From: an uncultured Gammaproteobacteria bacterium | GTDB lineage: Bacteria; Patescibacteriota; Microgenomatia; Levybacterales; UBA12049 | NCBI GenBank assembly: GCA_964408485.1 | Contig: CAYOZJ010000004.1 | Coordinates: 8,685-72,684, forward strand | Length of the DNA: 64,000 nucleotides | Reading direction: 5' to 3' | Shown: positions 2,602-54,975 of the stretch, piece after piece | How positions within the stretch are numbered: position 1 is the first letter of the stretch | How the letters are laid out: each line of letters opens with the position of its first letter | The notes under the pieces: generated by a model | Databases searched by the model: none | What the model saw: only the letters and a program-made list of their open reading frames with translations | What the model was told of the DNA's origin: nothing | Program-made: the position numbers and the translations under genes

Positions 2602-5283
2602 ATGGTTTTTTCACTTCTCTCTAAATTATTTGACTCTAACGAAAAAGAAATTCAAAAACTTCAACCAATTGTTGATGAGATTACTAATCTGGAACCTAAA
2701 ATGCAAAAACTCAAAACAGAAGATTTTGCTAAGAAAACAGAAGAATTTAAAAAACGGATTGCAAAAGGGGAATCACTTGACGATTTGTTGCCCGAGGCGT
2801 TTGCGCTGACTAGAGAAGCTGCGAAAAGAAGTATTGGACAGCGCCACTTTGATGTGCAGCTTATGGCAGCAATTACACTTTCTCTTGGAAAGATTGCTGA
2901 GCAAAAAACAGGAGAAGGAAAAACATTATCTGCTGTGCCTGCGCTCTATCTTCATGCGCTAACAGGAAAGAATGTTCATTTAGTAACAGTCAATGATTAT
3001 TTGGCCAGGCGAGACGCAGGGTGGATGGGACCTGTCTTTCATCTTCTTGGAATTCGTGTGAGTGCAATTATTGGAGAAAAATCCTTTATCTACGATCCTA
3101 AGTTTACTAATAGTGCTGCAGGTGACTCTCGATTACTTCATTTAAAAGAAATTAGTCGTCAAGAGGCGTACAAAGCAGATATTGTGTATGGAATTAATTC
3201 TGAATTTGGTTTTGATTATCTTCGTGACAATATGGCGCAGGATGTAAATCAGTTAGTACAACGGGGATATTATTTTGCCATTGTTGATGAAGTTGATTCG
3301 GTTCTTATCGATGAAGCACGAACACCACATATTATTTCTGCTCCTGAGGCAGAGCCAACACAAAAATACTATGAATATGCAAAAATTGTTGAGAAATTAA
3401 ATTCCGAGACAGATTACAAAATAGACGAAAAGCTAAAAACAGTCCATCTTACCGAGCATGGCCTTGCAAAAATTGAAAAATTGTATGGTATTGCAAATAT
3501 TTATGAAAAAGATTTTGATACGGTATACCACTTAGAGGCAGCACTCAAAGCCAAAACACTTTTCCACCGCGAAAAAGATTACATTGTTAGGGACAACGAA
3601 GTTATTTTAGTGGATGAGTTTACCGGACGTCTTATGGTCGGAAGACGTCTTTCTGAAGGATTACATCAGGCAATAGAAGCAAAAGAAAATGTTCCAATTC
3701 AAAGGGAGTCCAAAACACTTGCAACTGTTTCTTTGCAGAATTATTTCAGAATGTATGAAAGACTAGCTGGTATGACTGGTACAGCAGTTACTGAGGCGGA
3801 AGAGTTTCATAAAATCTACAAATTAGATGTTATTGTTATTCCAACAAATAATCCAATTGCAAGAAAAGACTATGCAGACGCAGTATATAAAACAACTCCA
3901 GCAAAGATAACAGCAGTGGTAGAGGAAATTGCTCGTGTCCATGCAACAGGACAGCCAATTCTTGTAGGTACGACCTCCATTGATAAAAATGAAATTCTTT
4001 CACAGCTTTTAACTCGCAAAGGCATAAAACATGATGTGTTAAATGCAAAAAATCATCTGAAAGAAGCAGAGATTATTGCGAAAGCAGGAGAAAAGGGTGC
4101 TGTGACTGTTGCAACCAATATGGCAGGACGAGGAGTAGATATTGTTTTGGGCGGTTCTCCAGAGGAGAATGTGAAAGCCAAAAAAGAATGGGAAAAGAAG
4201 AATGCAGAAGTAAAGTCTCTTGGAGGACTTTATATTATTGGTACGGAAAGACACGAGTCACGCCGTATTGATAATCAGTTACGAGGACGAGCTGGGCGTC
4301 AGGGGGATCCCGGAACAAGTAAATTCTTTGTTGCTTTAGATGACGAAATAATGCGGCTTTTTGGTGGAGATACTATTGCAGGGCTTATGACGCGGTTTAA
4401 TATGCCCGATGATATGCCACTAGAGCATCCGTTGGTAAGTAGGGCAATAGAGCAAGCACAAGTAAAGGTAGAAGGGTTTAACTTTGATAGTCGTAAACAT
4501 TTAGTTGAGTATGACGATGTTTTGAATAAACAGCGAGAGATTATCTATGCACTTCGTAGAAAGGCCCTAGAGCAATCAGGAGATCCCTTAAAGGATGAAA
4601 TACTTGCAAAACTGGACAATGCACTTGCATCAATTGTTGCAATGTCTGAGACAAGTACTGTTGCGTCAGGAAAATCAGGAAATGAAATTATTCTTGAAGA
4701 ATTTACTGCAATAATTCCTTTCGACGAAGCGTCTCGCGAGCAGCTTCTTGCACAGTTGCAGCAGTTACAAAATCCTCAGGCAAAAACAGAATTTTTAAGT
4801 ACATTAGCTCACGATCTCTATACCAACAGAACAAAAGAGTTGGGAGAAGACCTGATGCGTCAAATTGAAAAATATGTAGTTCTTTCTGTTGTAGATGCGT
4901 TGTGGGTAGATCATTTAGATGCTGTTGACAATTTGAGACAGGGAATTGGTCTTCGGGGATATGGGCAAAGAGATCCACTCGTTGAATATAAGAATGAAGC
5001 ATTTCGTATGTTTGAGCAACTTGTTGCTGCGCTTGATAATGAAATAGTCCATAGGATATTCCGAGTTAATGTGCAGCCTGCGCCTGAGCACGAGCATGTA
5101 CACATAGATACTAATGTTGCTGCGGTAACCATGGGGCAAGAGAGTTCTAGCGTCATTGCGAAGAGTGAAACGACGCGGCAATCTAAATCTATAGATAAAA
5201 CTAAATTAGGACGCAATGATCCGTGTTGGTGTGGATCTGGGAAAAAATGGAAGAAATGTCACTATCCACAATTACCAAACTAA
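2602..5283 (+). CDS. secA: Preprotein translocase ATPase SecA (893 aa) with C-terminal zinc-binding CWCGSGKKWKKCH tail
   Basis: DEAD-like motor motifs (GEGKTL, DEVDSVLIDEARTP), wing/scaffold regions and the C-terminal metal-binding domain. Confidence 0.95.
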   Translation: MVFSLLSKLFDSNEKEIQKLQPIVDEITNLEPKMQKLKTEDFAKKTEEFKKRIAKGESLDDLLPEAFALTREAAKRSIGQRHFDVQLMAAITLSLGKIAEQKTGEGKTLSAVPALYLHALTGKNVHLVTVNDYLARRDAGWMGPVFHLLGIRVSAIIGEKSFIYDPKFTNSAAGDSRLLHLKEISRQEAYKADIVYGINSEFGFDYLRDNMAQDVNQLVQRGYYFAIVDEVDSVLIDEARTPHIISAPEAEPTQKYYEYAKIVEKLNSETDYKIDEKLKTVHLTEHGLAKIEKLYGIANIYEKDFDTVYHLEAALKAKTLFHREKDYIVRDNEVILVDEFTGRLMVGRRLSEGLHQAIEAKENVPIQRESKTLATVSLQNYFRMYERLAGMTGTAVTEAEEFHKIYKLDVIVIPTNNPIARKDYADAVYKTTPAKITAVVEEIARVHATGQPILVGTTSIDKNEILSQLLTRKGIKHDVLNAKNHLKEAEIIAKAGEKGAVTVATNMAGRGVDIVLGGSPEENVKAKKEWEKKNAEVKSLGGLYIIGTERHESRRIDNQLRGRAGRQGDPGTSKFFVALDDEIMRLFGGDTIAGLMTRFNMPDDMPLEHPLVSRAIEQAQVKVEGFNFDSRKHLVEYDDVLNKQREIIYALRRKALEQSGDPLKDEILAKLDNALASIVAMSETSTVASGKSGNEIILEEFTAIIPFDEASREQLLAQLQQLQNPQAKTEFLSTLAHDLYTNRTKELGEDLMRQIEKYVVLSVVDALWVDHLDAVDNLRQGIGLRGYGQRDPLVEYKNEAFRMFEQLVAALDNEIVHRIFRVNVQPAPEHEHVHIDTNVAAVTMGQESSSVIAKSETTRQSKSIDKTKLGRNDPCWCGSGKKWKKCHYPQLPN

Positions 5284-8788: not shown

Positions 8789-8914
8789 GTCTACCCAATT
8801 TCAGGTGACGCTCACAATCAAGTTCGCTAAGTGAAATTTGATTACCAGCTAAAAATAAACCGTATACACTTTCTGCAATCAAATTCCAATTCACCTGAGA
8901 ATTGGGAATAGCCT
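8789..8914. repeat. Copy 1 of a ~126-nt dispersed element (family E) with inverted termini CCCAATTTCAGGTGA ... TCACCTGAGAATTGGG. Second copy at 29662-29788.
   Basis: Blocks GTCTACCCAATTTCAGG(T/A)TGACGCTC, GTTCGCTAAGTGAAATTT and TTCAATTCACCTGAGAATTGGGA(A/G)TAGCCT are shared by both copies. The central part diverges. Confidence 0.6.
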
Positions 8915-8991
8915 GCTGCCTACTCACAAAACAGCAGAACAATGAGCATACATAACTTCACCCATTTCGATATTTGAATTTGGGGTTTGAT

Positions 8992-9068
8992 TAAAAATTT
9001 CAAATCGCCGCTTCGGGGAAGCTGACACCTCGGGGAGGATAATCCCGAGTCGGGAAGTACCCTTGGGG
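8992..9068 (+). repeat. GC-rich repeat family B (core CGCCGCTTCGG(G/C)GAAGCT..GTACCCTTGGGGT), long variant with an internal hairpin. An inverted long copy lies at 16778-16855.
   Basis: Near-identical 70-nt sequence found in reverse complement at 16778-16855. Shorter versions at 15727-15770, 41162-41200 and 35443-35480 (reverse). Confidence 0.55.
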
Positions 9069-9105
9069 TAAGAAATTTAAAATTCCACTATGATATAGTG
9101 GATAT

Positions 9106-14638: not shown

Positions 14639-16762
14639 ATATTTTTTTACTTCCAGTTTATAGTCCTTTATTTTAAATTTTTTCCTCAGTTGGGCAATAG
14701 GAAGTGTAAGATACTGTTTTGCTAATTTTTGAGACTCTCTTTCATATTCTTTTGCGAGGGTTTTATATTTTCCAATACCTTTTTTTATAATTTTATCTTC
14801 CTGCTGTAATACGTCAACATAAAGAAGAAATTTTCCCAACCCTTTTTTCTGAAAATCTGACATGGATACGGGGTTGATGCGAATACTGGAGAATTTTTTT
14901 GAAAAAGTAAGACGATGCCTAAATGTTGCCACATTTTTTTCAAGAATTTCTTTGTCCTTTGCCAGAGATTGGTCGGGAAGTCCAAAGCTGTCAAACAGAA
15001 GAGAAAGAAAGAGTCGTTTTGTCCTGTCAATCATGCTTCCACCCATTTCGTCTTTTTCCGGAACAGCCACTCCCATAATTTCTGCTTGTTCACGAGCAAT
15101 ACTTGGCAATGCGCAGGAGATTGCTGCAATATATGTTTGGAGTGCTATCTTTTCATCTTCATGGACTCTTTTTTTGGCTCTTTGAAAAAGTTGCATAAAT
15201 TCCTTGGCACGGTCACTAAATCCATCAATCAAATGCCCAGCTGTATCTGGTATTACGTATTTAGTATTAAGTATATTTTGAGATTTTTCATCCATTCCAC
15301 TTTGTTCAGGATTCGAGATGACAGGATTTTCTTTACGCTTAACGCTTAACGCTTTACGCTGTCTTGCTCTAATCCCATCTAAGACATCGGTAAGATTGCC
15401 AAATGTATAGTGATACCAGCCTTTTGTTTTAGTAATAACGGATTTGTCATTAAGTTGTTTGAGTCCGAGAGAAAGTTTATTGAGTCCCAAAACAGAAATT
15501 TCATTTGGAGAAAGATTTTTATCAACGAGTCGATCTAAAGCCCATTCAAATTTACGAATAACATTTCGCGCTTTATTATTTTGTGCTGGTGTGAATTGCG
15601 ATTGTTTTATTGCTAAATTGTTAAATTGTTGAGATTGCTTCGCTTCAGTTCCTTCGCTCGCAATGACGGAAGTATTGTTGTTTGAGCTTGTCGAGAACCT
15701 TTGGCTTTCTTTTACGCTTGACGCTTGACGCGCCGCTTCGGCAAAGCTAGTACCCTTGGGGTGCTTTACCCTTAATTCCGGTCTGAGTGTCCATAAAATT
15801 TCCTTTGGTCCGTCTCCTTCGAGAATATGAATACTATTATTGTCTTTCATTTTTTCTTTGAGCATCTCGCGTGCAAGTGGTGTTGGATGGACGCCGTATT
15901 GAGAAAGAGTATAAGAGGTTGGGTCCTCCTTCATGGTAAGCATTGGAATATCAACAGTTGCATCGCCAAAAAGAAATGCATGGATACGCTTGTCATTGCG
16001 AGGAGTCGAAGGCGACGTGGCAATCTCATTAGATTGCTTCGCTTTGTTCGTAATGACATTTTCAGAACCAGAATGGCGATTGAGTTCGATCGCCAAATTT
16101 TTTAATACATACTGCACAGCTTTGTCTTTCCCTGCAGTACTTGGGGTAATAAGTAATTCTCCTGAGAATGTTTCTAGTGAGTTTTTCCATAACAACTTTT
16201 CTGTAAGAATAATGCGAATACCCTTTGGGAATAACTTGAGAACTTCCCTGCGAATAGCATCTACTTGTTTGAGTGGATACGTATTGAGTCTAATGCGTAT
16301 TAAATAGGTATTGCCTCTTCCCAAACGAAACATAAGACCATTGCTTTGTAAATACTGTGTGATGCCATCAGTTATTTCCGCTTTATTCCATGAACTAACA
16401 TTGCCTTGTGCATCAGTTACTTTTGTTGACTGCATAGTCCCTTGCCATGAAAAATCACTGATATATCCGTTTCGTGTCGCGAAGTAAATAATCGTCCCAT
16501 TTGCCGTGATAACAGCATCTGGCTTGGGTACGCCAAGAAGCTTTAAGTGATACTTATCAATCCGTCGCCAAAAAGATCGGCCAGTGACAATAATAAAAGG
16601 GATGCATTTTGCAGAAATATACGCTGCTGTTTGTAAATTAAAGAGAGGTGCAGTAAGAAGGTTAAGGTTGGGGCTAAAAAGCGTGCCATCAATATCGGTA
16701 AGCAACATCGTGGGTTTGTCTTGCTTTTCGAGTTTGGTTAAAATTATATCTGTATCAGACAT
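14633..16762 (-). CDS. 709-aa protein. N-terminal HAD-IIB sugar-phosphate phosphatase domain (SPP/MPGP-like), then a ~400-aa region of unknown function. The linker region passes through several GC-rich repeat elements in frame.
   Basis: HAD motif I LLTDIDGTLF, motif II IVTGRS, motif III lysine in AGKDKAVQYV and motif IV FGDATVDIPML. Repeat-derived segments RVKHPKGTSFAEAARQ, VIASEGTEAKQSQ and RKALSVKRK appear in the translation. Confidence 0.6.
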   Translation of the reverse strand: MSDTDIILTKLEKQDKPTMLLTDIDGTLFSPNLNLLTAPLFNLQTAAYISAKCIPFIIVTGRSFWRRIDKYHLKLLGVPKPDAVITANGTIIYFATRNGYISDFSWQGTMQSTKVTDAQGNVSSWNKAEITDGITQYLQSNGLMFRLGRGNTYLIRIRLNTYPLKQVDAIRREVLKLFPKGIRIILTEKLLWKNSLETFSGELLITPSTAGKDKAVQYVLKNLAIELNRHSGSENVITNKAKQSNEIATSPSTPRNDKRIHAFLFGDATVDIPMLTMKEDPTSYTLSQYGVHPTPLAREMLKEKMKDNNSIHILEGDGPKEILWTLRPELRVKHPKGTSFAEAARQASSVKESQRFSTSSNNNTSVIASEGTEAKQSQQFNNLAIKQSQFTPAQNNKARNVIRKFEWALDRLVDKNLSPNEISVLGLNKLSLGLKQLNDKSVITKTKGWYHYTFGNLTDVLDGIRARQRKALSVKRKENPVISNPEQSGMDEKSQNILNTKYVIPDTAGHLIDGFSDRAKEFMQLFQRAKKRVHEDEKIALQTYIAAISCALPSIAREQAEIMGVAVPEKDEMGGSMIDRTKRLFLSLLFDSFGLPDQSLAKDKEILEKNVATFRHRLTFSKKFSSIRINPVSMSDFQKKGLGKFLLYVDVLQQEDKIIKKGIGKYKTLAKEYERESQKLAKQYLTLPIAQLRKKFKIKDYKLEVKKYL
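15636..15770. repeat. Cluster of repeat fragments inside the same CDS: family A half-site 15636-15675, family D ACGCTTGACGCTTGACGC and family B 15727-15770
   Basis: Matches to copies at 18980-19012, 16853-16920 and 41162-41200, seen directly. Confidence 0.5.
16005..16070. repeat. 66-nt imperfect palindrome (family A: GTCATTGCGAG...GCAATCTC/ATTAGATTGC...CGTAATGAC) inserted in frame in the HAD domain. It encodes VITNKAKQSNEIATSPSTPRND between HAD motifs III and IV.
   Basis: The two halves are reverse complements. 66 nt equals 22 codons with no stop in the coding frame. Confidence 0.6.
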
Positions 16763-29661: not shown

Positions 29662-29788
29662 GTCTACCCAATTTCAGGATGACGCTCGCTACGGGTTCGC
29701 TAAGTGAAATTTAACACCATATCGCATTCATATAATCTCATGGTTTTCTGCATTAAATTTCAATTCACCTGAGAATTGGGAGTAGCCT
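29662..29788. repeat. Copy 2 of the ~126-nt family E element
   Basis: Shares both terminal blocks and the GTTCGCTAAGTGAAATTT block with 8789-8914. Confidence 0.6.
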
Positions 29789-29885
29789 ACTAATTTCTTT
29801 CTTAATTCTTACTTCTTGATTCATAATTCTCCCCGTAGGGTTGCGTAGCAACATAAAATATGCTTTACTAAATTGAGTATTCATT

Positions 29886-33395: not shown

Positions 33396-34256
33396 ATGAA
33401 GGGTAAAATACTCCAAAGATTTTCTGTCGTGATTTTTTGTGCAGTTGTTTTCTTTACAATACACGCACTTGTACTCGCTGCATCTTTCTCTCTACAAAGT
33501 AATCAATCAGCAATTGGTACAGGTGATGAATATACTGTGAATGCAACACTTTCTATTAGTGCATCAGATGGGACACAGTATTTTCTTCGCGGAGTATTTT
33601 ATCAACCAGGAACATCTAACTACTGCGGCTATACATACAATGGATCATCCTACTACAACGGGCCATATACAACAAATAATGGGTGGCAAAATGTTTTGCC
33701 AATAACAGTCCAAAATAGTAGTTGGAGTGGTACATTAAAAGCAAAAATTGACTCGTCAGATAGTGGGTGTCAGTCGTCCGGTACGTATAATTTTAAAATT
33801 CAACGGTTTACGACATCGGGAAGCGGAACATTTGATAATCAGAATGAGCAAACAATTTCTGTAATAATTCCAACACCAACGCCAACGAATAGTCCAACAT
33901 CAATTCCTGCTGCAACGAGTACCCCTGTTCCAACGACCAAAATTACCTCTTCACCAACCCCGATTAAATCGGGGCCAACACCAAAGCCAACACTAACCCC
34001 CTTCCCGACAGTTCTTTCTGCAAGCACTTCGAGTCAGACAGATGATTCAGGCTTGTCCACAGAAAATACGCCTACAGGAGAGGGACTTGTTGCTGGAATA
34101 AGTGATGAGAGAAAGCCACTTGGTGGCTTTAATCCATTTGCTATTGCGCTTATTGTTATAGGAGTTGGAATCATTCTTACCTGTGGTATACTATTTTTTC
34201 GAGAATGGAAAAAGTCTCGGTTAAGAAAGGACACAGATGAAGTTACACACGAATAG
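33396..34256 (+). CDS. Cell-surface protein: signal peptide, ~150-aa globular domain, Pro/Thr-rich linker, C-terminal TM anchor with basic tail
   Basis: PTPTPTNSPTSIPAATSTPVPTTKITSSPTPIKSGPTPKPTLTP linker, then IALIVIGVGIILTCGILFF and KKSRLRK. Confidence 0.5.
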   Translation: MKGKILQRFSVVIFCAVVFFTIHALVLAASFSLQSNQSAIGTGDEYTVNATLSISASDGTQYFLRGVFYQPGTSNYCGYTYNGSSYYNGPYTTNNGWQNVLPITVQNSSWSGTLKAKIDSSDSGCQSSGTYNFKIQRFTTSGSGTFDNQNEQTISVIIPTPTPTNSPTSIPAATSTPVPTTKITSSPTPIKSGPTPKPTLTPFPTVLSASTSSQTDDSGLSTENTPTGEGLVAGISDERKPLGGFNPFAIALIVIGVGIILTCGILFFREWKKSRLRKDTDEVTHE

Positions 34257-34725
34257 TGCGTTGGAAACGCAAAAAACAGGTGCGGAATTTGCAAAACAAC
34301 TCCGTGGTGGAGATGTTGTTTTATTATATGGGGAATTAGGTGCGGGGAAAACAACATTTACCCAAGGAGTGGCATATGGACTTGGCATTGAAAGGCGAAT
34401 TATTTCTCCAACGTTTATTATTGTGAGAAAGTATGAAGTACCCAGTGTCATTCTGGGGAACGTAGTGACTCCAGAATCTGGTTCAAGAATAGATTCTGGA
34501 CAAGCCAGAATGACGGTTAAAACCCTCTACCACATAGATCTTTATAGAACTCAAACAGATGATGATTTAAAGGGATTAGGGTTACAAGAAATATTAGAAG
34601 AAAAAGATGCAATTGTTGTTATTGAGTGGCCAGAAAAATTGGGTTCTCTTTTCCCAAAGAAAGCATGGGAAGTAAAGTTTGTTGATGACCAGCACGATGA
34701 AAGGGATGTTACAATAGAGAAATAA
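34237..34725 (+). CDS. tsaE: tRNA t6A37 biosynthesis ATPase TsaE (YjeE) carrying an in-frame ~23-aa insertion encoded by a palindromic repeat
   Basis: P-loop YGELGAGKTTF, SPTF and YHIDLYR motifs. The insertion is SVILGNVVTPESGSRIDSGQARM, between SPTF...Y and YHIDLYR. Confidence 0.85.
   Translation: MKLHTNSALETQKTGAEFAKQLRGGDVVLLYGELGAGKTTFTQGVAYGLGIERRIISPTFIIVRKYEVPSVILGNVVTPESGSRIDSGQARMTVKTLYHIDLYRTQTDDDLKGLGLQEILEEKDAIVVIEWPEKLGSLFPKKAWEVKFVDDQHDERDVTIEK
34447..34515. repeat. 69-nt palindrome (family C: GTCATTCTGG...CCAGAATCTGG/..TCTGGACAAGCCAGAATGAC) inside tsaE
   Basis: Arms are reverse complements. Related copies at 38283-38342, 54608-54640 and 54917-54960. Confidence 0.6.
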
Positions 34726-34828
34726 AATTTACCCGTTCGACACTCGATTCAGTGTTTGCTTCGCCGAAGCGGCACAGCTCAGGGATAAATTTTTCCTGAG
34801 CGAATAGAATGAGTCGAAGGATAATCTA

Positions 34829-35407
34829 ATGAACAAAAATATACATAAAGCAATAAGCATTCTTAAATCTGGAGGAATAGTTCTTCTTCCAACAGATACC
34901 GTTTTTGGGATTTGCTGCAGGATAGATAATAAGGAAAGTTTGCAGCGTTTATTTGCAATTAAAAAACGCGATGAGCATCAAGCAGTACCAATACTTGTAA
35001 GTAGTACAGATATGGTAAAGCAGTATGTTGAAGAGTTGGATAATAATGTAGAGCGCCTTATGGAAGACTATTGGCCAGGAGGGTTAACAATTATTTTGAA
35101 AGCAAAAAAAGAAAAAGTTTTATCTCTGGTTAGAGGGGATGGAGATACTATTGGTGTACGAATTCCGGATTTATTATCACCATTTCAAATAATTGAAAAA
35201 TTGGGTGTACCCATTGTTGGCACATCTGCCAATTTTCATGGATTACCATCAGTAACCAAATTTAAAGATTTAGATCCTGAATTGGTTAATCTCGTTGATT
35301 ATGTTTTGGAAGAGGATACTCTTGGTGGAGTTGCGTCAACTGTTGTAGATTGTACTGTTAGTCCATGGAAAATCTTACGCCCAGGAGCTGTTAGCTTAAC
35401 TATTTAA
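34829..35407 (+). CDS. tsaC: L-threonylcarbamoyladenylate synthase TsaC/YrdC-domain protein
   Basis: YrdC fold motifs: LPTDTVFGI, KKRDEHQAVPILV and GTSANFHG. Confidence 0.85.
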   Translation: MNKNIHKAISILKSGGIVLLPTDTVFGICCRIDNKESLQRLFAIKKRDEHQAVPILVSSTDMVKQYVEELDNNVERLMEDYWPGGLTIILKAKKEKVLSLVRGDGDTIGVRIPDLLSPFQIIEKLGVPIVGTSANFHGLPSVTKFKDLDPELVNLVDYVLEEDTLGGVASTVVDCTVSPWKILRPGAVSLTI

Positions 35408-35490: not shown

Positions 35491-35787
35491 ATGAACACAC
35501 TTTTTATCGATACAACAAATAATAAAGAAATTATTATCAGATTAGCAATAGATCAAAAATCTTTTGAAGAAAAAGTTGCAATAGAAAATAATAGGACTCA
35601 AGTTGTTTTGCCAACAATCCAAAAGTTATTAAAACAACATGATCTTACGGTTAAGGACATTGAAAAAGTAGAAGTAAATCCTGGACCGGGAAGTTTTACT
35701 GGAGTGAGAGTTGGTGCAGCAATTGCTAATAGTATTATTTTTGCGCTAGGACTTTCGCAAGATCTCATTGAGCCGGTGTATACCTGA
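35491..35787 (+). CDS. tsaB: TsaB (YeaZ)-like protein, unusually short (98 aa, N-terminal subdomain only)
   Basis: EVNPGPGSFTGVRVGAAIANSIIFALG is typical of TsaB/TsaD N-lobe. The rest of the ASKHA fold is absent. Confidence 0.6.
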   Translation: MNTLFIDTTNNKEIIIRLAIDQKSFEEKVAIENNRTQVVLPTIQKLLKQHDLTVKDIEKVEVNPGPGSFTGVRVGAAIANSIIFALGLSQDLIEPVYT

Positions 35788-36998: not shown

Positions 36999-37733
36999 AT
37001 GAAAGGCGTTATTTTAGCTGGTGGACTTGGAACAAGACTATATCCTTTAACCTACGTTACCAACAAACATCTTCTTCCCGTGTATGACAAGCCAATGATT
37101 TTTTATCCAATTCAGACTCTGGTAAATGCAGGAGTAAAGGAAGTCCTTATTGTTACCAGTGGTCCTCATGTTGGTCACTTTTTAAGTGTATTAAAAAACG
37201 GAAAAGAGTTAGGACTTGATCACTTGGAATATGCATATCAAGAAAAGCCAGATGGAGGAATTGCTGATGCGCTTTCTTTGGCAAGAGATTTTGCAGATGG
37301 AGATAGTGTTGCGGTTATTTTGGGAGACAATACAACAGATGCAGATATTGCACCAGCTGTAAAAGGTTTTACAGAAGGCGCAATGGTTTTCTTGAAAGAC
37401 GTACCAGATGCACATCGCTTTGGCGTTGCTGTTTTTGATGAAAAAGATCCATCTCAGGTTATTGCAATCGAAGAAAAACCTAAGCAACCGAAGAGTAGTA
37501 TGGCAGTGACAGGGGTATATCTATATGACCATCATGTTTTTGAAATGATTAAAAATCTTAAGCCATCAGACAGAGGAGAACTGGAGATTACTGATGTAAA
37601 TAATGAATATATTAGTAAAAAGCAACTCCACTGGGCAGAGCTTAAGGGTTTTTGGTCGGATGCAGGCACATTTAAAAGTCTATATAGATCAAATAGATAT
37701 TGGGCTCAAAAAATGGAAAAAGACCTCATGTAA
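36999..37733 (+). CDS. rmlA: Glucose-1-phosphate thymidylyltransferase-like sugar nucleotidyltransferase (RmlA family, short form). Start at 36999 with GGAGG SD.
   Basis: ILAGGLGTRLYPLT signature. The ORF opens at 36948, but an SD-ATG pair is at 36999. Confidence 0.8.
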   Translation: MKGVILAGGLGTRLYPLTYVTNKHLLPVYDKPMIFYPIQTLVNAGVKEVLIVTSGPHVGHFLSVLKNGKELGLDHLEYAYQEKPDGGIADALSLARDFADGDSVAVILGDNTTDADIAPAVKGFTEGAMVFLKDVPDAHRFGVAVFDEKDPSQVIAIEEKPKQPKSSMAVTGVYLYDHHVFEMIKNLKPSDRGELEITDVNNEYISKKQLHWAELKGFWSDAGTFKSLYRSNRYWAQKMEKDLM

Positions 37734-37738
37734 TTTTC

Positions 37739-38281
37739 ATGGATACGCAAAAAATACTTTCCTCACAGGTTGTTTTTAAAGCAAAATTGTTTGATGTCAA
37801 AGAAGAAGTCTTAGAAGATCACAATAAAAAAATCCACACATTCCATACCGCGTATGAAAAACCGGCAGCAGGTGTTATTCCGCTTACTCCAAAAGGTGAG
37901 GTAATTCTTATTGATCAGTATCGATATGTTTTTGGAAAAAGAATATTGGGAATGATTGCAGGATTTATAGAAGATGGAGAGACTTCTCTGCAAGCTGCCA
38001 AAAGGGAGCTTAAAGAAGAAACAGGTATTGTTGCAGGACAGTTTGAGTTATTGGCAAAAGCAGAGCTTGCGAGAAGCGTTGCGACACAAACCTATTACAT
38101 ATTTTTAGCAAAAGACCTAGAAATTGGAGAGGCTCATCCTGACAGTGATGAGGATATTCGAGTTGTCCGAATGCCGCTTGCGGATGCAGTAGCAAAAGTT
38201 ATGAATGGAGAAATCTACCATTCTCCAAGTATGACTGCTATACTAATGCTTGATAAGTTAAAAAAGGAGAAAAAAATATAG
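37739..38281 (+). CDS. NUDIX hydrolase (ADP-ribose or nucleotide-sugar pyrophosphatase-like)
   Basis: Nudix box GFIEDGETSLQAAKRELKEETGI. Confidence 0.75.
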   Translation: MDTQKILSSQVVFKAKLFDVKEEVLEDHNKKIHTFHTAYEKPAAGVIPLTPKGEVILIDQYRYVFGKRILGMIAGFIEDGETSLQAAKRELKEETGIVAGQFELLAKAELARSVATQTYYIFLAKDLEIGEAHPDSDEDIRVVRMPLADAVAKVMNGEIYHSPSMTAILMLDKLKKEKKI

Positions 38282-38350
38282 TGTCATTCTGGCTTGTCCA
38301 GAATCTAGATCCTGGATGCACTACGCTTACCAGGATGACTGTTTAAAATT

Positions 38351-39373
38351 ATGAAATTACTTGTAACAGGTGGAGCAGGGTTTATTGGCAGCAATTTTAT
38401 TTTGTATTGGATGAAAAATCATCCGGAAGACGAAGTAGTCAATTTTGATAAATTAACCTACGCTGGGAATCTAGAAAATTTAAAAGCAGTTGAACATCTT
38501 CCAAATTATTCATTTATACGGGGTGATATTTGTGATGCTATTGCCGTTGAAAATGCAATGCAAGGCATAGACTTTGTTGTCCATTTTGCTGCAGAGTCTC
38601 ATGTGGATAGAAGCATTATGAATCCTTCAGATTTTGTTGAGACAAATGTCGGAGGAACACAAGTGTTGCTGGATGCAGCTCTTAAAGCGAATATAAAACG
38701 ATTTCATCATGTATCAACAGATGAAGTATTTGGTGCGCTAGAGGTAGGTTCGTCTGATCGATTTAACGAATCAACTTCATACAATCCTCATAGTCCGTAT
38801 TCTGCAAGTAAGGCTGGATCTGATCATTTAGTGAGAGCATACGCAGATACATACGGACTTCCAATAACCATTACGAATTGCTCAAATAATTTTGGTCCAT
38901 ACCATTTCCCCGAAAAAATAATACCTCTTGCGATTACTAATGTGTTGGAAGAAAAAAAAGTACCAATCTATGGAGACGGGTTATATGTGCGGGATTGGTT
39001 GCATGTAGAGGATCATGCGCGCGCAATAGAAGCAGTACTTCTTAAGGGAAAAGAGGGGGAAACGTATTGTGTAGGAGGGCTTAAAAAGGGTGCCGCAGAA
39101 ATAAATAATTTAGAAGTTGTAAAAGAAATTTTACGCATCTTAGATAAAGATGAAAGTTATATTGAACTTGTCAAAGATAGACCAGGACATGACAGGCGGT
39201 ATGCGATTGATTGGAGTAAAATTCATACCGAATTAGGATGGGAGCCATTGCATGATTTCTCAGAATGGTTAGAGCGGACAGTCCAGTGGTACAAAAATAA
39301 TGAGTCGTGGTGGAAAAATGTAAAGAATGGAAGTTATGAAGAATACTATAAAAAGCAATATGAACAAAGGTAA
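38351..39373 (+). CDS. rmlB: dTDP-glucose 4,6-dehydratase
   Basis: TGGAGFIGSNF, YSASK catalytic motif and NCSNNFGPYHFPEKIIP. Confidence 0.9.
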   Translation: MKLLVTGGAGFIGSNFILYWMKNHPEDEVVNFDKLTYAGNLENLKAVEHLPNYSFIRGDICDAIAVENAMQGIDFVVHFAAESHVDRSIMNPSDFVETNVGGTQVLLDAALKANIKRFHHVSTDEVFGALEVGSSDRFNESTSYNPHSPYSASKAGSDHLVRAYADTYGLPITITNCSNNFGPYHFPEKIIPLAITNVLEEKKVPIYGDGLYVRDWLHVEDHARAIEAVLLKGKEGETYCVGGLKKGAAEINNLEVVKEILRILDKDESYIELVKDRPGHDRRYAIDWSKIHTELGWEPLHDFSEWLERTVQWYKNNESWWKNVKNGSYEEYYKKQYEQR

Positions 39374-41085: not shown

Positions 41086-41161
41086 GAATAATTTCTCAGT
41101 TGTCAGTTCTCAATTTTCATTGAATTGAATAATGATCATTGAATCATTTATTGAAAACTGG

Positions 41162-41200
41162 AAATCGCCGCTTCGGCGAAGCTAGTACCCTTGGGGTAGT
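41162..41200 (+). repeat. Family B short repeat (AATCGCCGCTTCGGCGAAGCTAGTACCCTTGGGGTAG), 18 nt upstream of the ugd ATG
   Basis: Matches 15727-15770 and the core of 8992-9068. Confidence 0.5.
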
Positions 41201-41217
41201 AAATTGAAAACATCATT

Positions 41218-42528
41218 ATGACTATAACATTTCTTGGACATGGTTATGTAGGGTTAGTAACAGCAGCAGTTTTTGCCGATCTTGGCAATAAAGTGTGGGT
41301 TATTGGTCACACAAAAGAAAAAATTGAAAACCTTAAAAATGGTATTCTCCCAATCTATGAACCAGGACTTGAAGAATTGGTTGTTCGTAACGTAAAAGCA
41401 GGACGTCTCTTATTTACTCTTGATTACAAACCAGCAATTCCAGAATCAGACGTTGTCTTTATTGCGGTAGGTACACCACCGAAGCCAACAGGAGAAGCAG
41501 ATTTATCTGTTGTTTTTGAGGTTGCAGAAAAAATTGGTCAAAATTTAGATGGATATACAGTTGTTATAACAAAAAGCACTGTGCCAGTTGGGACAAATAA
41601 AAAGGTTGGGGAGATTTTGGCAAAAGTAAAACCTGCTAAGGCTGAATTTGATATTGCATCCTGTCCGGAATTTTTGCGGGAAGGTCAGGCAATTGGAGAC
41701 ACCCAGCATCCCGATAGAGTTGTTATTGGAGCAGATAGTAAGCGAGCAGAAGAGAAATTAGTTGAGCTCCATAAGCCAATTTTAGAGGGAAATGGAAAAT
41801 CAAAATTAGTTTTAACAAATATTTCTACAGCAGAAATGATTAAGTATGCATCGAATGCATTTTTAGCAACAAAGATTAGTTTTGCTAATGCAATTGCCCA
41901 ACTCTCTGAAAAAGTCGGTGCAGATGGTCCAGACGTCCTTACGGCAATTGGGCTTGATAAACGAATTGGAACATACTTCTTAAATGCAGGAGCAGGATAT
42001 GGTGGAAGCTGCTTTCCAAAAGATGTAAAAGCACTTATTGCAATAGCCGGAGAAAATGGATATGACTTTAAGCTCTTAAAAGATGTTGAGGAAGTAAATA
42101 AAGAAGCAATGCATGCTGTTGCAAAAAAAGTTAAAAAACTTCTTGGAGATGTAAAAGGAAAGCGAGTCGGCGTATTGGGTCTTACCTTTAAGCCGGATAC
42201 CGATGACATGCGCGATGCGCCAAGCAGGACAGTCTTGCCGGAGCTCTTAAAAGATGGGGCAAGTGTGGTCGCATTTGATCCTATTGCAACGAATGCAAAT
42301 AAGAAATTTCCAGAATTAGCAGGACTGGAAATGGCAAAAGATGCATACGATGTTGCAAAAAACGCGGATATTTTAGTTGTTATGACAGAATGGAACGAAT
42401 TTAAGCAAATGGATGTTGAGAAAATAAAATCGCTCATGAAATCCCCAGTAGTTGTTGATGGACGAAATATGTTTGACGCAAAGCAAATGCGTTCTCTTGG
42501 ATTTACCTATGTTGGTGTTGGAAGATAA
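41218..42528 (+). CDS. ugd: UDP-glucose 6-dehydrogenase
   Basis: GHGYVGL NAD-binding, catalytic GGSCFPKD and the C-terminal UDP-binding domain. Confidence 0.9.
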   Translation: MTITFLGHGYVGLVTAAVFADLGNKVWVIGHTKEKIENLKNGILPIYEPGLEELVVRNVKAGRLLFTLDYKPAIPESDVVFIAVGTPPKPTGEADLSVVFEVAEKIGQNLDGYTVVITKSTVPVGTNKKVGEILAKVKPAKAEFDIASCPEFLREGQAIGDTQHPDRVVIGADSKRAEEKLVELHKPILEGNGKSKLVLTNISTAEMIKYASNAFLATKISFANAIAQLSEKVGADGPDVLTAIGLDKRIGTYFLNAGAGYGGSCFPKDVKALIAIAGENGYDFKLLKDVEEVNKEAMHAVAKKVKKLLGDVKGKRVGVLGLTFKPDTDDMRDAPSRTVLPELLKDGASVVAFDPIATNANKKFPELAGLEMAKDAYDVAKNADILVVMTEWNEFKQMDVEKIKSLMKSPVVVDGRNMFDAKQMRSLGFTYVGVGR

Positions 42529-48452: not shown

Positions 48453-48526
48453 AATATTTAACCCATTCGATAAGCTCAGGGATAAAATATTTTTTCCTGA
48501 GCGAGCAAAGCGAGTCGAAGGATAAT

Positions 48527-54596: not shown

Positions 54597-54640
54597 AAGT
54601 AATATTGTCACTCTGGTAAGCGATAGCGCATCCAGAATCT

Positions 54641-54937
54641 ATGAAACAAGGTTTTGTTTACATAATGGCTAACGATAAACCAGTTATATACACTGGGGTA
54701 ACAAGTAATTTGATTCAAAGGGTTCATCAGCATAAAAATCATTTGGTTCAAGGATTCACTTCAAAATATAATCTTCATAAACTTGTTTACTACGAAACTT
54801 TAAATACTATAGAGAGCGCTATTACTAGAGAGAAACAAATTAAGGATATGGATAGAAAGGATAAATTACTTATGATTGAAAAATTGAACCCTGATTTTAA
54901 AGACTTGTATGGAGAGATTCTGGACAAGCCAGAATGA
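54641..54937 (+). CDS. GIY-YIG nuclease superfamily protein (98 aa), flanked on both sides by family C palindromic repeats
   Basis: FVYIMANDKPVIYTGVTSNLIQRVHQH GIY-YIG core. Repeats at 54608-54640 and 54917-54960. Confidence 0.75.
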   Translation: MKQGFVYIMANDKPVIYTGVTSNLIQRVHQHKNHLVQGFTSKYNLHKLVYYETLNTIESAITREKQIKDMDRKDKLLMIEKLNPDFKDLYGEILDKPE

Positions 54938-54975
54938 CAGAACGCTCAGGCAAGATTTGTTTACGCTTTTCGCTT

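Follow-up and report, generated by a model that had tools for sequence, protein, structure and literature searches.

The REPIN–RAYT system combines doublets of GTAG-tagged REP sequences with a Y1 HUH transposase. A second group of hairpin repeats, the CGTC-tagged REP superfamily, includes Neisseria dRS3 as well as RPE-6 (CGTC-1) and RPE-4 (CGTC-4) of Rickettsia conorii; its published traits are a GTCAT/ATGAC tag, inverted dimers, in-frame inserts of 20–30 aa and orthologues with different repeat types at one site, and no dedicated transposase was found for these repeats (Di Nocera et al. 2013, PMC3733652). The ATGAC motif is common to RPE types 4, 6 and 7 and almost absent from types 1, 2, 3 and 5 (Matsutani et al. 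2013, PMC3767692), and both RPE and CGTC inserts have been interpreted in print as translated surface loops (PMC3733652, PMC3767692). A third hairpin, the NTS/SRM, is the motif recognized by Ssn, a single-stranded DNA (ssDNA) nuclease, with a GTC before the stem and a C after it being critical for both cleavage and binding (Chenal et al. 2025, PMC11893778). One or more SRM sequences occur in 71% of the regions surrounding genes for SsnA homologues in RefSeq genomes, and in N. meningitidis transformation is modulated in an NTS-dependent manner (PMC11893778).

Tagged hairpins that can be compared with all three systems are present in the window, that is, the whole 64,000-nucleotide stretch of DNA analysed here, where two of them interrupt the gene tsaE:

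34237–34725, plus strand: tsaE, encoding TsaE (162 aa), identified from the open reading frame (ORF) list, Pfam, TIGR00150 and fold matches; hosts the insertion
34447–34479, plus strand: left long-loop GTC-tagged hairpin (SRM-like), with a GTC tag, the stem ATTCTGG/CCAGAAT and a 14-nt loop
34480–34490, strand not applicable: 11-nt spacer GGTTCAAGAAT separating the two hairpins
34491–34514, minus strand: right short-loop GTC-tagged hairpin, identified from its arms, folding and exact copies elsewhere

The product of 34237–34725 is TsaE. The 162-aa ORF matches the Pfam TsaE family PF02367 (E = 2e-34), the match being split after residue 68, and also TIGR00150 in NCBIfam, and it contains the TsaE blocks GELGAGKT (the P-loop, GxxGxGKT), SPTF and YHIDLYR (YHxDLYR). 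An AlphaFold2 model of the protein (pLDDT 85, pTM 0.81) has the YjeE fold according to Foldseek, which matched it to 5np9, 6s84 and 1htw (E = 5e-12), the solved structures being those of B. subtilis YdiB, T. maritima TsaE and H. influenzae YjeE.

The original prediction placed a GC-rich, 69-nt palindrome inside tsaE, adding 23 residues in frame, and both its location and its reading frame were borne out. The nested palindrome spans 68 nt (34447–34514), with outer arms GTCATTCTGG and CCAGAATGAC (34447–34456 and 34505–34514) and inner arms TCCAGAATCT and AGATTCTGGA (34470–34479 and 34491–34500), each pair being 100% complementary. Folded as ssDNA it reaches −15.7 kcal/mol (z = −3.9 and −4.3 on the two strands), which none of 200 shuffles matched. 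Position 34447 is the first position of a codon, and base 34515 extends the 68 nt to 69, giving 23 stop-free codons, the encoded peptides including VILGNVVTPESGSR and IDSGQAR. The GC enrichment is only moderate (46%, compared with 38% for the window), and the insert consists of a pair of GTC-tagged hairpin repeats, inverted relative to each other and with their tags facing outward, rather than one palindrome; its counterpart at 38283–38339 folds into two independent hairpins. In the long-loop hairpin a C and a tail lie 3′ of the stem. The short hairpin reads GTCATTCTGG CTTGT CCAGAATCT on the minus strand and, on the plus strand, is the 24-mer AGATTCTGGACAAGCCAGAATGAC, translated as DSGQARMT; it folds at −5.2 kcal/mol (z = −5.9).

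Three further copies had been proposed in the window. All are related repeats, but those at 54608–54640 and 54917–54960 are the two ends of one ssn-carrying unit, and the copy at 38283 lies in the opposite orientation:

38283–38339, minus strand: second doublet, non-autonomous and reversed, with a short hairpin at 38283–38306, a long hairpin at 38307–38339 and no spacer
54607–54640, plus strand: long-loop hairpin, left end of the ssn-carrying unit, directly upstream of the ssn start codon
54641–54937, plus strand: ssn homologue, a gene for a 98-aa single-domain GIY-YIG nuclease (Pfam PF01541, E = 4e-12)
54915–54938, minus strand: short-loop hairpin, right end of the ssn-carrying unit, identical to 34491–34514

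With at most one mismatch, GTCATTCTGG has nine matches in the window against 3.2 expected, a number reached by none of 100 shuffles, and the exact 24-mer AGATTCTGGACAAGCCAGAATGAC occurs three times, at 34491, at 54915 and, reversed, at 38283. The window contains six tagged hairpins arranged as three pairs, each composed of one long-loop and one short-loop unit with outward tags. All six follow the pattern GTC-A[TC][TC]CTGG...CCAG[AG]AT-C, the tag occurring as TGTC, CGTC or AGTC and the stem beginning with AT, and every doublet terminates at both ends in GTCAT/ATGAC. The hairpins of a pair are separated by 11 nt in the tsaE copy, by 0 nt in copy 2 and by approximately 274 nt, containing the ssn gene, in copy 3. 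Copy 2 occupies a 69-nt gap between the ORFs at 37700–38281 and 38351–39373. None of the three window copies shows a target-site duplication. A general richness of coding regions in hairpins was also considered, and was unsupported by a window-wide inverted-repeat scan.

The ssn-carrying unit, located 20 kb downstream of tsaE, is complete, comprising a long hairpin, ssn and a short hairpin. The ATG of the gene directly follows the left hairpin, and its stop codon lies within the right hairpin, which encodes the last codons, ILDKPE, together with the stop. The ends of this unit recur in the tsaE doublet and in that at 38283, both of which lack the gene. The GIY-YIG (Ssn-like) gene inside the third copy, overlooked in the original prediction, is the key to the identity of the element.

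The window nuclease is 49% identical (E = 4e-33) to the product of a 94-aa N. gonorrhoeae ORF, SsnA, which is flanked by canonical NTS repeats, and its residues Y7, Y17 and E64 align with the gonococcal catalytic residues Y6, Y17 and E64. The ILDKPE C terminus is found in 75 of 120 homologues, and the hairpin–ssn–hairpin layout recurs at four loci in other phyla (L023, L072, L085 and L098). A PDB sequence search with the nuclease gave only a marginal UPF0213 match (E = 0.23) and no solved Ssn structure. Like the NTS/SRM (PMC11893778), the window hairpins are inverted repeats of approximately 20–50 nt, here with perfect arms of 7–10 bp; they have ATTC...GAAT stem ends, a GTC tag directly 5′ of the palindrome and a C directly 3′ of it, and lie on either side of a gene, homologous to ssnA, for a single-domain GIY-YIG protein of about 95 aa. 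They differ in the central stem, which is TGG/CCA here and CCGCG/CGCGG in the canonical motif, and in the 13–14-nt loop of the left unit. The tags face outward, whereas in N. gonorrhoeae and Neisseria they face inward toward the gene; unlike in the NTS/SRM–SsnA arrangement, the stop codon of the window gene sits inside a hairpin, and the hosts are Patescibacteria, Nitrospirota and Ignavibacteria metagenome-assembled genomes (MAGs). The published SRM string, HGTCWYN(0-2)YYVSBRHN(0-5)WNVSBRGN(0-2)RNCYNB, has zero matches on either strand of the window because the central stem bases of these hairpins differ from the canonical CCCGCG. By analogy with the described nucleases, the window hairpins would be motifs of the kind targeted by small GIY-YIG Ssn enzymes, which bind them solely as ssDNA and cut just 5′ of the tag, a few nucleotides upstream.

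The elements share a second set of traits with the CGTC-REPs. The short unit has a (C/T)GTC tag, an AT-initial stem, a 5-nt loop and a short tail, and the doublets contain the ATGAC motif of RPE types 4, 6 and 7. Inverted dimers predominate: they account for all three window sites, and of 111 copies of the 24-mer in other genomes 69 have a tagged hairpin upstream as partner, the stem of which is the canonical NTS ATTCCCG in 39 cases. The intragenic dimer encodes 23 aa in frame, within the 20–30 aa of CGTC-REPs, the inserts appear solvent-exposed, and tsaE orthologues carry differing repeat groups at one locus. Measured against the CGTC-REP definition of an unpaired (C/T)GTC tag at one end, an 8–9-bp stem beginning with AT, a 4–5-nt loop and a short 3′ tail, the window units begin their stems with AT and carry TGTC, CGTC or AGTC tags, but the perfect stem is 7 bp, the short loop is 5 nt and the long-loop unit, at 13–14 nt, falls outside the rule; the tail is CTN instead of CCA. 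The Candidate Phyla Radiation (CPR) lies outside the five phyla reported for CGTC-REPs in 2013, and, unlike in that survey, a candidate dedicated enzyme (ssn) is found here inside a full-length copy (PMC3733652). The CPR/Microgenomates affiliation of the window is drawn solely from the names given to related MAGs.

The Rickettsia-like behaviour proposed for the insertion holds in part. The segment is repeat-derived, lies in frame, is missing in some orthologues and has the tag and dimer traits described above; like RPE types 1, 2 and 3 it occupies an essential gene, where it would be tolerated as a surface segment, being modelled as a low-confidence loop with function predicted to be compatible. 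No curated, peptide-level RPE model was matched, an NCBIfam search with six insert-bearing TsaE proteins (E up to 10) returning only TsaE and generic ATPase families, and RPE-bearing inserts in R. japonica (68–192 nt) are generally longer than the 68-nt doublet (PMC3767692). The likeness to REPIN–RAYT is one of organization: the non-autonomous unit is an inverted doublet of tagged hairpins, a single-copy nuclease gene lies between matching hairpins and the copies are mostly intergenic. The tag here is GTC, not GTAG, and the associated gene encodes a GIY-YIG nuclease, with no known strand-joining chemistry, in place of a Y1 HUH transposase. The 68-nt palindrome is probably a non-autonomous, REPIN- or MITE-like dimer of GTC-tagged hairpins of the NTS/SRM or CGTC-REP superfamily, inserted in an ancestor and tolerated as a loop. 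A literature search returned no description of the element in CPR genomes; the novelty claimed for it was too strong, because the element type itself is well described elsewhere.

At the protein level, residues 74–90 of the AlphaFold2 model, located between strands 63–67 and 96–101, score below 50. The 23-residue insert is accordingly modelled as a disordered loop between two strands at the protein surface. A different outcome, in which the mRNA loses the 69 nt or translation skips them to give a mature TsaE without the 23 residues, could be read from the strong hairpin and the interrupted conserved domain. We consider this very improbable: all tsaE insert variants retrieved are in frame and stop-free, with only three of the six frames of the doublet open; intron and intein features are absent; and the published RPE and CGTC inserts are read as translated surface loops (PMC3733652, PMC3767692). 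Rfam gave no family at gathering thresholds across the whole window, and an E-value search of 34200–34900 gave chance-level matches only; a known structured RNA was therefore rejected.

Among the 120 closest TsaE homologues, the segment from SPTF to YHxDLYR ranges from 9 to 64 aa, with insert-free proteins having approximately 12–17 aa; 41 of the 120 are enlarged at the insertion site, and many of their loop peptides look repeat-derived. At the DNA level, the orthologous site holds a doublet in the window and in L117, L118 and L119, a single hairpin in L120 and L121, and a multi-hairpin cluster in L123. It is empty in L122, and P0011 lacks the element at the DNA level, as expected if the sequence is extra relative to orthologues; P0010 and P0013, like L122, are close relatives without any hairpin. 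Close relatives that carry the segment stripped of its palindromic signature would have spoken against an insertion, but in P0002–P0004 the shared segment is no such refutation, because the signature is intact. The comparison of L118 with L123 shows flanks 95% identical over 201 nt around inserts of 57 and 150 nt, and compensated stems (ATCCTGG/CCAGGAT) are present in L118, L120 and the long hairpin of window copy 2 (38307–38339). Because even the nearest database relative of this tsaE shares only 75% identity with it, the comparison captured no gain or loss of recent date.

The hairpin in tsaE orthologues is 21–24 of 24 nt identical, compared with 43–55% identity at flanking third codon positions. 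Such conservation of the short hairpin where surrounding synonymous sites are saturated, together with the enlargement of the same loop in 41 of the 120 closest TsaE proteins, often by repeat-like peptides, and the effect of NTS on meningococcal transformation (PMC11893778), would suit a domesticated hairpin kept for the host, either as an Ssn-guarded site limiting recombination or replacement of the t6A cluster, in the manner of NTS repeats around Neisseria genes, or as an internal DNA or RNA hairpin tuning tsaE expression. This seems improbable to us, since L122, P0010 and P0013 manage without a hairpin, an identical hairpin lies in many unrelated genes, and the content of the tsaE site switches between unrelated hairpin families. 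Given this turnover, a permissive hotspot fits better than a conserved function.

Beyond the window, the exact 24-mer was found at more than 116 genome loci in several phyla, none of the 116 being from the genome of the window, and the short hairpin also lies in frame in genes for ArgRS, TatD, TGT, GT2, an Eco57I-like methylase, prepilin peptidase and PMT_2. These loci, the identical 24-mers elsewhere in the window, the recovery of the tsaE insert in independent assemblies from different samples and the empty-site orthologue together refute the view that the palindrome has no mobile origin and is either a TsaE loop native to the lineage or an artefact of assembly, an explanation that has in its favour the presence of the segment in the closest relatives and nothing else. 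A phage vector for the spread across phyla was rejected, the 24-mer being on only 1 of 2.9 million viral contigs.

In other genomes, an ssn gene adjoins just 3 of 120 copies of the 24-mer. This distance of most copies from any ssn gene, together with the absence of a dedicated transposase for CGTC repeats (PMC3733652) and the fact that GIY-YIG nucleases cut and do not ligate, would be expected if the repeats are genuinely mobile or recombining but are moved by another enzyme (for example, an IS200/RAYT-type transposase) or solely by replication slippage and gene conversion, with ssn carried along as a passenger between sites that its own product binds. We regard this as rather unlikely in view of the matching asymmetric long and short ends of the gene-carrying unit and the gene-less doublets, the ssn stop codon that the hairpin supplies in 75 of 120 homologues and the frequency of SRM in SsnA-homologue regions (PMC11893778).

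For the ancestral insertion of a mobile dimer, which we favour, the following course can be proposed. A hairpin would have entered the loop between two TsaE β-strands in an ancestor of the lineage, at a place where an open frame allowed it to be read, and would still be translated as a tolerated, disordered surface loop of about 23 residues. Ssn may cut ssDNA beside the hairpins, with repair copying other copies by homing-like gene conversion or transposition, and such cutting and copy-repair would spread, homogenize and reshuffle the hairpins, which would explain the changing hairpin content of one loop. To our knowledge, GIY-YIG enzymes cut DNA and are not known to join it, so a transposition chemistry is not established. 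More tentatively, the doublets may be non-autonomous versions of a mobile element that carries ssn as its sole gene, a GIY-YIG-driven counterpart of REPIN/RAYT that crosses phyla with an identical 24-nt end and time and again remodels the same permissive loops of essential genes by cutting and copy-repair, RPE-4, RPE-6, RPE-7 and dRS3/NTS belonging to the same class; we hold this broader proposal to be possible but doubtful.

The window places the unit that carries the nuclease gene beside two doublets lacking a gene, all three having the same asymmetric ends; REPINs were recognized as derivatives of RAYT units through comparable evidence. It also links two literatures, that on RPE-type in-frame inserts and CGTC repeats ‘without a transposase’ and that on the recently discovered Ssn nuclease, and widens the host range of Ssn and its hairpins to CPR-like bacteria (Patescibacteria), Nitrospirota, Ignavibacteria and other MAGs. 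The published SRM search motif would overlook the TGG/CCA stem variant, and the window Ssn, with the hairpins cognate to it, may offer a new specificity for ssDNA-cutting tools. Annotators should note that CPR housekeeping proteins such as TsaE, ArgRS, TatD and TGT can have enlarged loops that derive from repeats and are not lineage-specific adaptations. If the broader proposal is true, it would supply the missing enzyme for CGTC-tagged repeats together with a mechanism for the in-frame insertion of palindromes.

The tsaE open reading frame encodes a 162-aa TsaE whose P-loop reads GELGAGKT and which also has SPTF and YHIDLYR blocks; the protein matches PF02367 (Pfam, E 2e-34; match interrupted after residue 68) and, as a second family, TIGR00150. 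Inside it lies a nested perfect palindrome with outer arms GTCATTCTGG / CCAGAATGAC and inner arms TCCAGAATCT / AGATTCTGGA. The palindrome begins at codon position 1 and, with base 34515, forms 69 nt or 23 stop-free codons, translated as VILGNVVTPESGSRIDSGQARM and running two bases into the following Thr codon; three of the six frames of the doublet are open. Folded as single-stranded DNA, it reaches -15.7 kcal/mol (z about -4), a value equalled by no shuffled sequence, and its arms are enriched in the window (9 matches versus 3.2 expected). The original prediction of an in-frame palindromic insert is thus borne out, although its description as GC-rich applies only mildly (46% G+C versus 38% in the window).

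Features of tsaE and the hairpin pairs
34237-34725, + strand, tsaE open reading frame
34447-34514, inside tsaE, nested perfect palindrome; hairpin pair 1, spacer of 11 nt
38283-38339, hairpin pair 2, reversed, no spacer
54607-54938, hairpin pair 3, about 274 nt with the ssn gene between the hairpins

What had been taken for one palindrome is in fact two GTC-tagged hairpins. Six such hairpins occur in the window as three pairs, each consisting of one long-loop unit (GTCAYYCTGG, a 13-14-nt loop, CCAGRATCT) and one short-loop unit (GTCATTCTGG CTTGT CCAGAATCT), inverted with their GTC tags outward. Pair 2 occupies almost the whole of a 69-nt intergenic gap. The compensated stem of its long unit (ATCCTGG/CCAGGAT) makes this pair fold into two adjacent hairpins instead of a single extended one, which identifies the individual hairpin as the unit that is repeated.

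The segments 54608-54640 and 54917-54960, previously listed as separate intergenic copies, are the two ends of one unit, pair 3, enclosing a 98-aa GIY-YIG gene that had been missed. The ATG of this gene, ssn, directly follows the left hairpin, and the right hairpin encodes its final six codons (ILDKPE) and TGA. The same layout, with the stop inside or adjoining a hairpin, is found at four other ssn loci (L023, L072, L085 and L098), and ILDKPE is the C-terminal end in 75 of the 120 closest ssn homologues. The tsaE element is a gene-less dimer whose asymmetric ends match this gene-carrying unit of the same genome. At L098 (about 3380-3440), L072 and L023, an extra hairpin with a loop of 20-30 nt (for example, AGATTCTGGACAAGACGGGTACCAGTCGGTAACCCACCAAGCCAGAATGAC) follows the stop-codon hairpin, as if the loop of a short unit had received an insertion.

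The SsnA enzyme of Neisseria meningitidis, a GIY-YIG protein of 94 aa with one domain, binds the hairpin repeat NTS (CGTCATTCCCGCGMAVGCGGGAATCYRG, core dRS3) exclusively in single-stranded DNA and cleaves a few nucleotides upstream of it; for cutting, the most important positions are the three nucleotides preceding the palindrome, and for binding, the C directly after it (Chenal et al. 2025, PMC11893778). The same study mutated Tyr6, Tyr17 and Glu64, described homologues across bacteria with related flanking motifs (SRM), and likened NTS-ssnA-NTS to an insertion sequence (PMC11893778). The window Ssn protein matched a Neisseria gonorrhoeae chromosome with 49.5% identity, at a 94-aa open reading frame that has Tyr6, Tyr17 and Glu64 and is flanked by canonical NTS repeats; pairwise BLASTP (E 4e-33) aligned these residues to window Tyr7, Tyr17 and Glu64. 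Sequence comparison identifies the gene of pair 3 as an Ssn homologue. The orthologue came from the plasmid collection, where NZ_CP119140.1 and NZ_CP119142.1, two complete N. gonorrhoeae chromosomes of 2.17 Mb, are entered as plasmids.

Like NTS and SRM, the window hairpins retain a stem with ATTC...GAAT ends, preceded by GTC and followed by C, and by these motifs they possess the predicted requirements of Ssn. The published degenerate SRM string has no match in the window because the central stem is TGG/CCA, not CCGCG/CGCGG; a screen with that string would overlook this variant of the stem. Tag orientation also differs, being inward in Neisseria and outward in the window: the tags face ssnA in NZ_CP119140.1 (L124:250-800) and point away from ssn in the window (54607-54938) and at L023, L072, L085 and L098, so that the predicted cut positions relative to the gene differ.

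Window TsaE was compared with its best 120 relatives, and the DNA of seven was inspected. Among these 120 proteins the segment between SPTF and YHxDLYR spans 9-64 aa (about 12-17 aa without an insert) and reaches at least 22 aa in 41; many of the enlarged loops look repeat-derived. The proposed alignment with orthologues did reveal an empty site, and all hairpin states share position, orientation and frame.

States of the tsaE loop (locus; protein; state)
L122; P0011; empty
L120, L121; P0007, P0012; short hairpin alone
window, L117, L118, L119; P0001-P0004; doublet
L123; P0005; cluster of at least four tagged hairpins, including a GTCATTGCG...GCAATC type
L126; P0006; other hairpin family

The 5' flanks of L118 and L123 are 95% identical over 201 nt; near-identical flanks beside such unlike inserts (57 versus 150 nt) imply rapid turnover at the site. 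In three closely related tsaE genes with 85-95% nucleotide identity in the 5' flank, the same codon bears the 57-nt doublet (L118:52-516), the 150-nt cluster (L123:1174-1746) or an unrelated hairpin family (L126:1501-1959), making the site a fast-evolving hotspot similar to the one reported at RPE-4/6/7 loci of Rickettsia. The short hairpin in six carrier tsaE genes is identical at 21-24 of 24 nt, versus 43-55% at flanking third codon positions, and L118 and L120 carry the compensated stem ATCCTGG/CCAGGAT; the hairpin is therefore maintained or refreshed as DNA, not merely carried as codons. The loop has been repeatedly hit, kept in frame and remodelled. A host function for the tsaE-internal hairpin is improbable, since a permissive hotspot accounts better for the empty site of some relatives and for the exchange of one hairpin family for another. 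Many loops of about 20 aa in P0023-P0120 resemble AT-rich palindromes in translation (RIMNHELRIMNM and IKNQESRIKNL, for example), and some of the 'short' loops may themselves derive from hairpins.

Between tsaE and the following gene (Sua5/YrdC-type, 34829-35407), the spacer (34726-34828) is filled by other palindromic repeat families. Its segment 34790-34825 (TTTTTCCTGAGCGAATAGAATGAGTCGAAGGATAAT) has an 86% identical copy at 48491-48526, and its GAGCGAA...GAGTCGA motif looks like the source of SERSES...SRQART in relatives' TsaE loops such as P0006. The third gene of the cluster (35491-35787) encodes only 98 aa where a TsaB-like partner is expected; its counterparts in relatives (105-107 aa) match PF00814 (TsaD). 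A separate family around CGCCGCTTCGGCGAAGCTAGTACCCTTGGGGT has three copies (8987-9093, 15731-15786 and 41147-41221; up to 97% identity), and a 40-nt direct repeat, ATCAAATTCCAATTCACCTGAGAATTGGGAATAGCCTGCT, lies at 8878-8917 and 29752-29791 (90% identical, 21 kb between).

An AlphaFold2 model of window TsaE, built from a 30-sequence alignment (pLDDT 85, pTM 0.81), matched solved structures of TsaE, YjeE and YdiB (E about 1e-11). Its pLDDT falls below 50 only at residues 74-90, which lie between strands 63-67 and 96-101, and a disordered loop on a β-hairpin is the best interpretation of the insert. Removal of the insert at the RNA or protein level is highly unlikely, since all variants are in frame and RNA family and intein features are absent.

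The genome collection contains exact copies of the short hairpin AGATTCTGGACAAGCCAGAATGAC, a 24-mer, at more than 116 loci. Hosts among the matches listed are Nitrospirota/Thermodesulfovibrionia, many Patescibacteria lineages, Ignavibacteria, Bacteroidetes, Gammaproteobacteria and Nitrospinota. Among viral contigs, just one has the 24-mer. Of 120 listed copies, only 3 adjoin an ssn gene. Outward-tagged dimers account for 69 of 111 listed copies (median spacer 18 nt), most commonly with the canonical NTS stem ATTCCCG as partner (39 cases). Of 103 listed copies, 17 are bordered on either side by 40 or more codons free of stops, versus 68% of random positions: the family is chiefly intergenic, and a minority of copies is coding. 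By Pfam, genuine host genes interrupted by the hairpin include ArgRS (DALR domain), TatD, TGT, a family-2 glycosyltransferase, an Eco57I-like methylase, a prepilin peptidase and PMT_2, and DSGQARMT is the most frequent reading frame. A native TsaE loop or an assembly artefact was excluded by these external copies, the insert in relatives' DNA and the empty orthologous site.

The 'CGTC-tagged' REP superfamily includes Neisseria dRS3 and Rickettsia conorii RPE-6 and RPE-4; inverted dimers predominate, intragenic dimers encode 20-30 aa, and no dedicated transposase was known in 2013 (Di Nocera et al. 2013, PMC3733652). RPE-4/6/7 share an ATGAC motif, lie in exposed regions, and include differing groups occupying one locus of orthologous genes (Matsutani et al. 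2013, PMC3767692). ATGAC is the complement of the GTCAT tag. The RPE-like behaviour originally predicted probably reflects membership in this superfamily, on the basis of shared features rather than alignment to RPE-4/6 sequences; the Rickettsia link is to RPE-4/6/7, not RPE-1/2/3, and the RPE peptide models gave no match.

With outward tags, the cuts made by Ssn in single-stranded DNA would fall immediately to the left of a unit on the top strand and immediately to its right on the bottom strand; other copies would then serve as repair templates, by which hairpins would be spread, homogenized and swapped, and selection would retain only in-frame copies in tolerant loops. Such cutting and repair would explain nucleotide conservation, heterodimers with other stem types and hotspot persistence. 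Spread as a simple transposon fits less well: target-site duplications are not visible at the window's three copies, tags are inward in Neisseria, the nearest tsaE relative, at only 75% identity, is too distant to capture a recent event, and no joining activity is known for GIY-YIG enzymes. Mobilization by something other than Ssn is a less likely alternative.

Already published are this type of element, the dimeric arrangement, the in-frame behaviour and the connection with a GIY-YIG nuclease. New are the host, a genome judged CPR-like from the names of related MAGs, a stem variant outside the published motif, autonomous and non-autonomous forms side by side with matching asymmetric ends, an ssn stop codon fused with a hairpin, a 24-mer identical across phyla, and turnover documented at a single loop of an essential gene. 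Tentatively, Ssn-hairpin units might be a GIY-YIG counterpart of REPIN/RAYT, which would also explain RPE-4/6/7.
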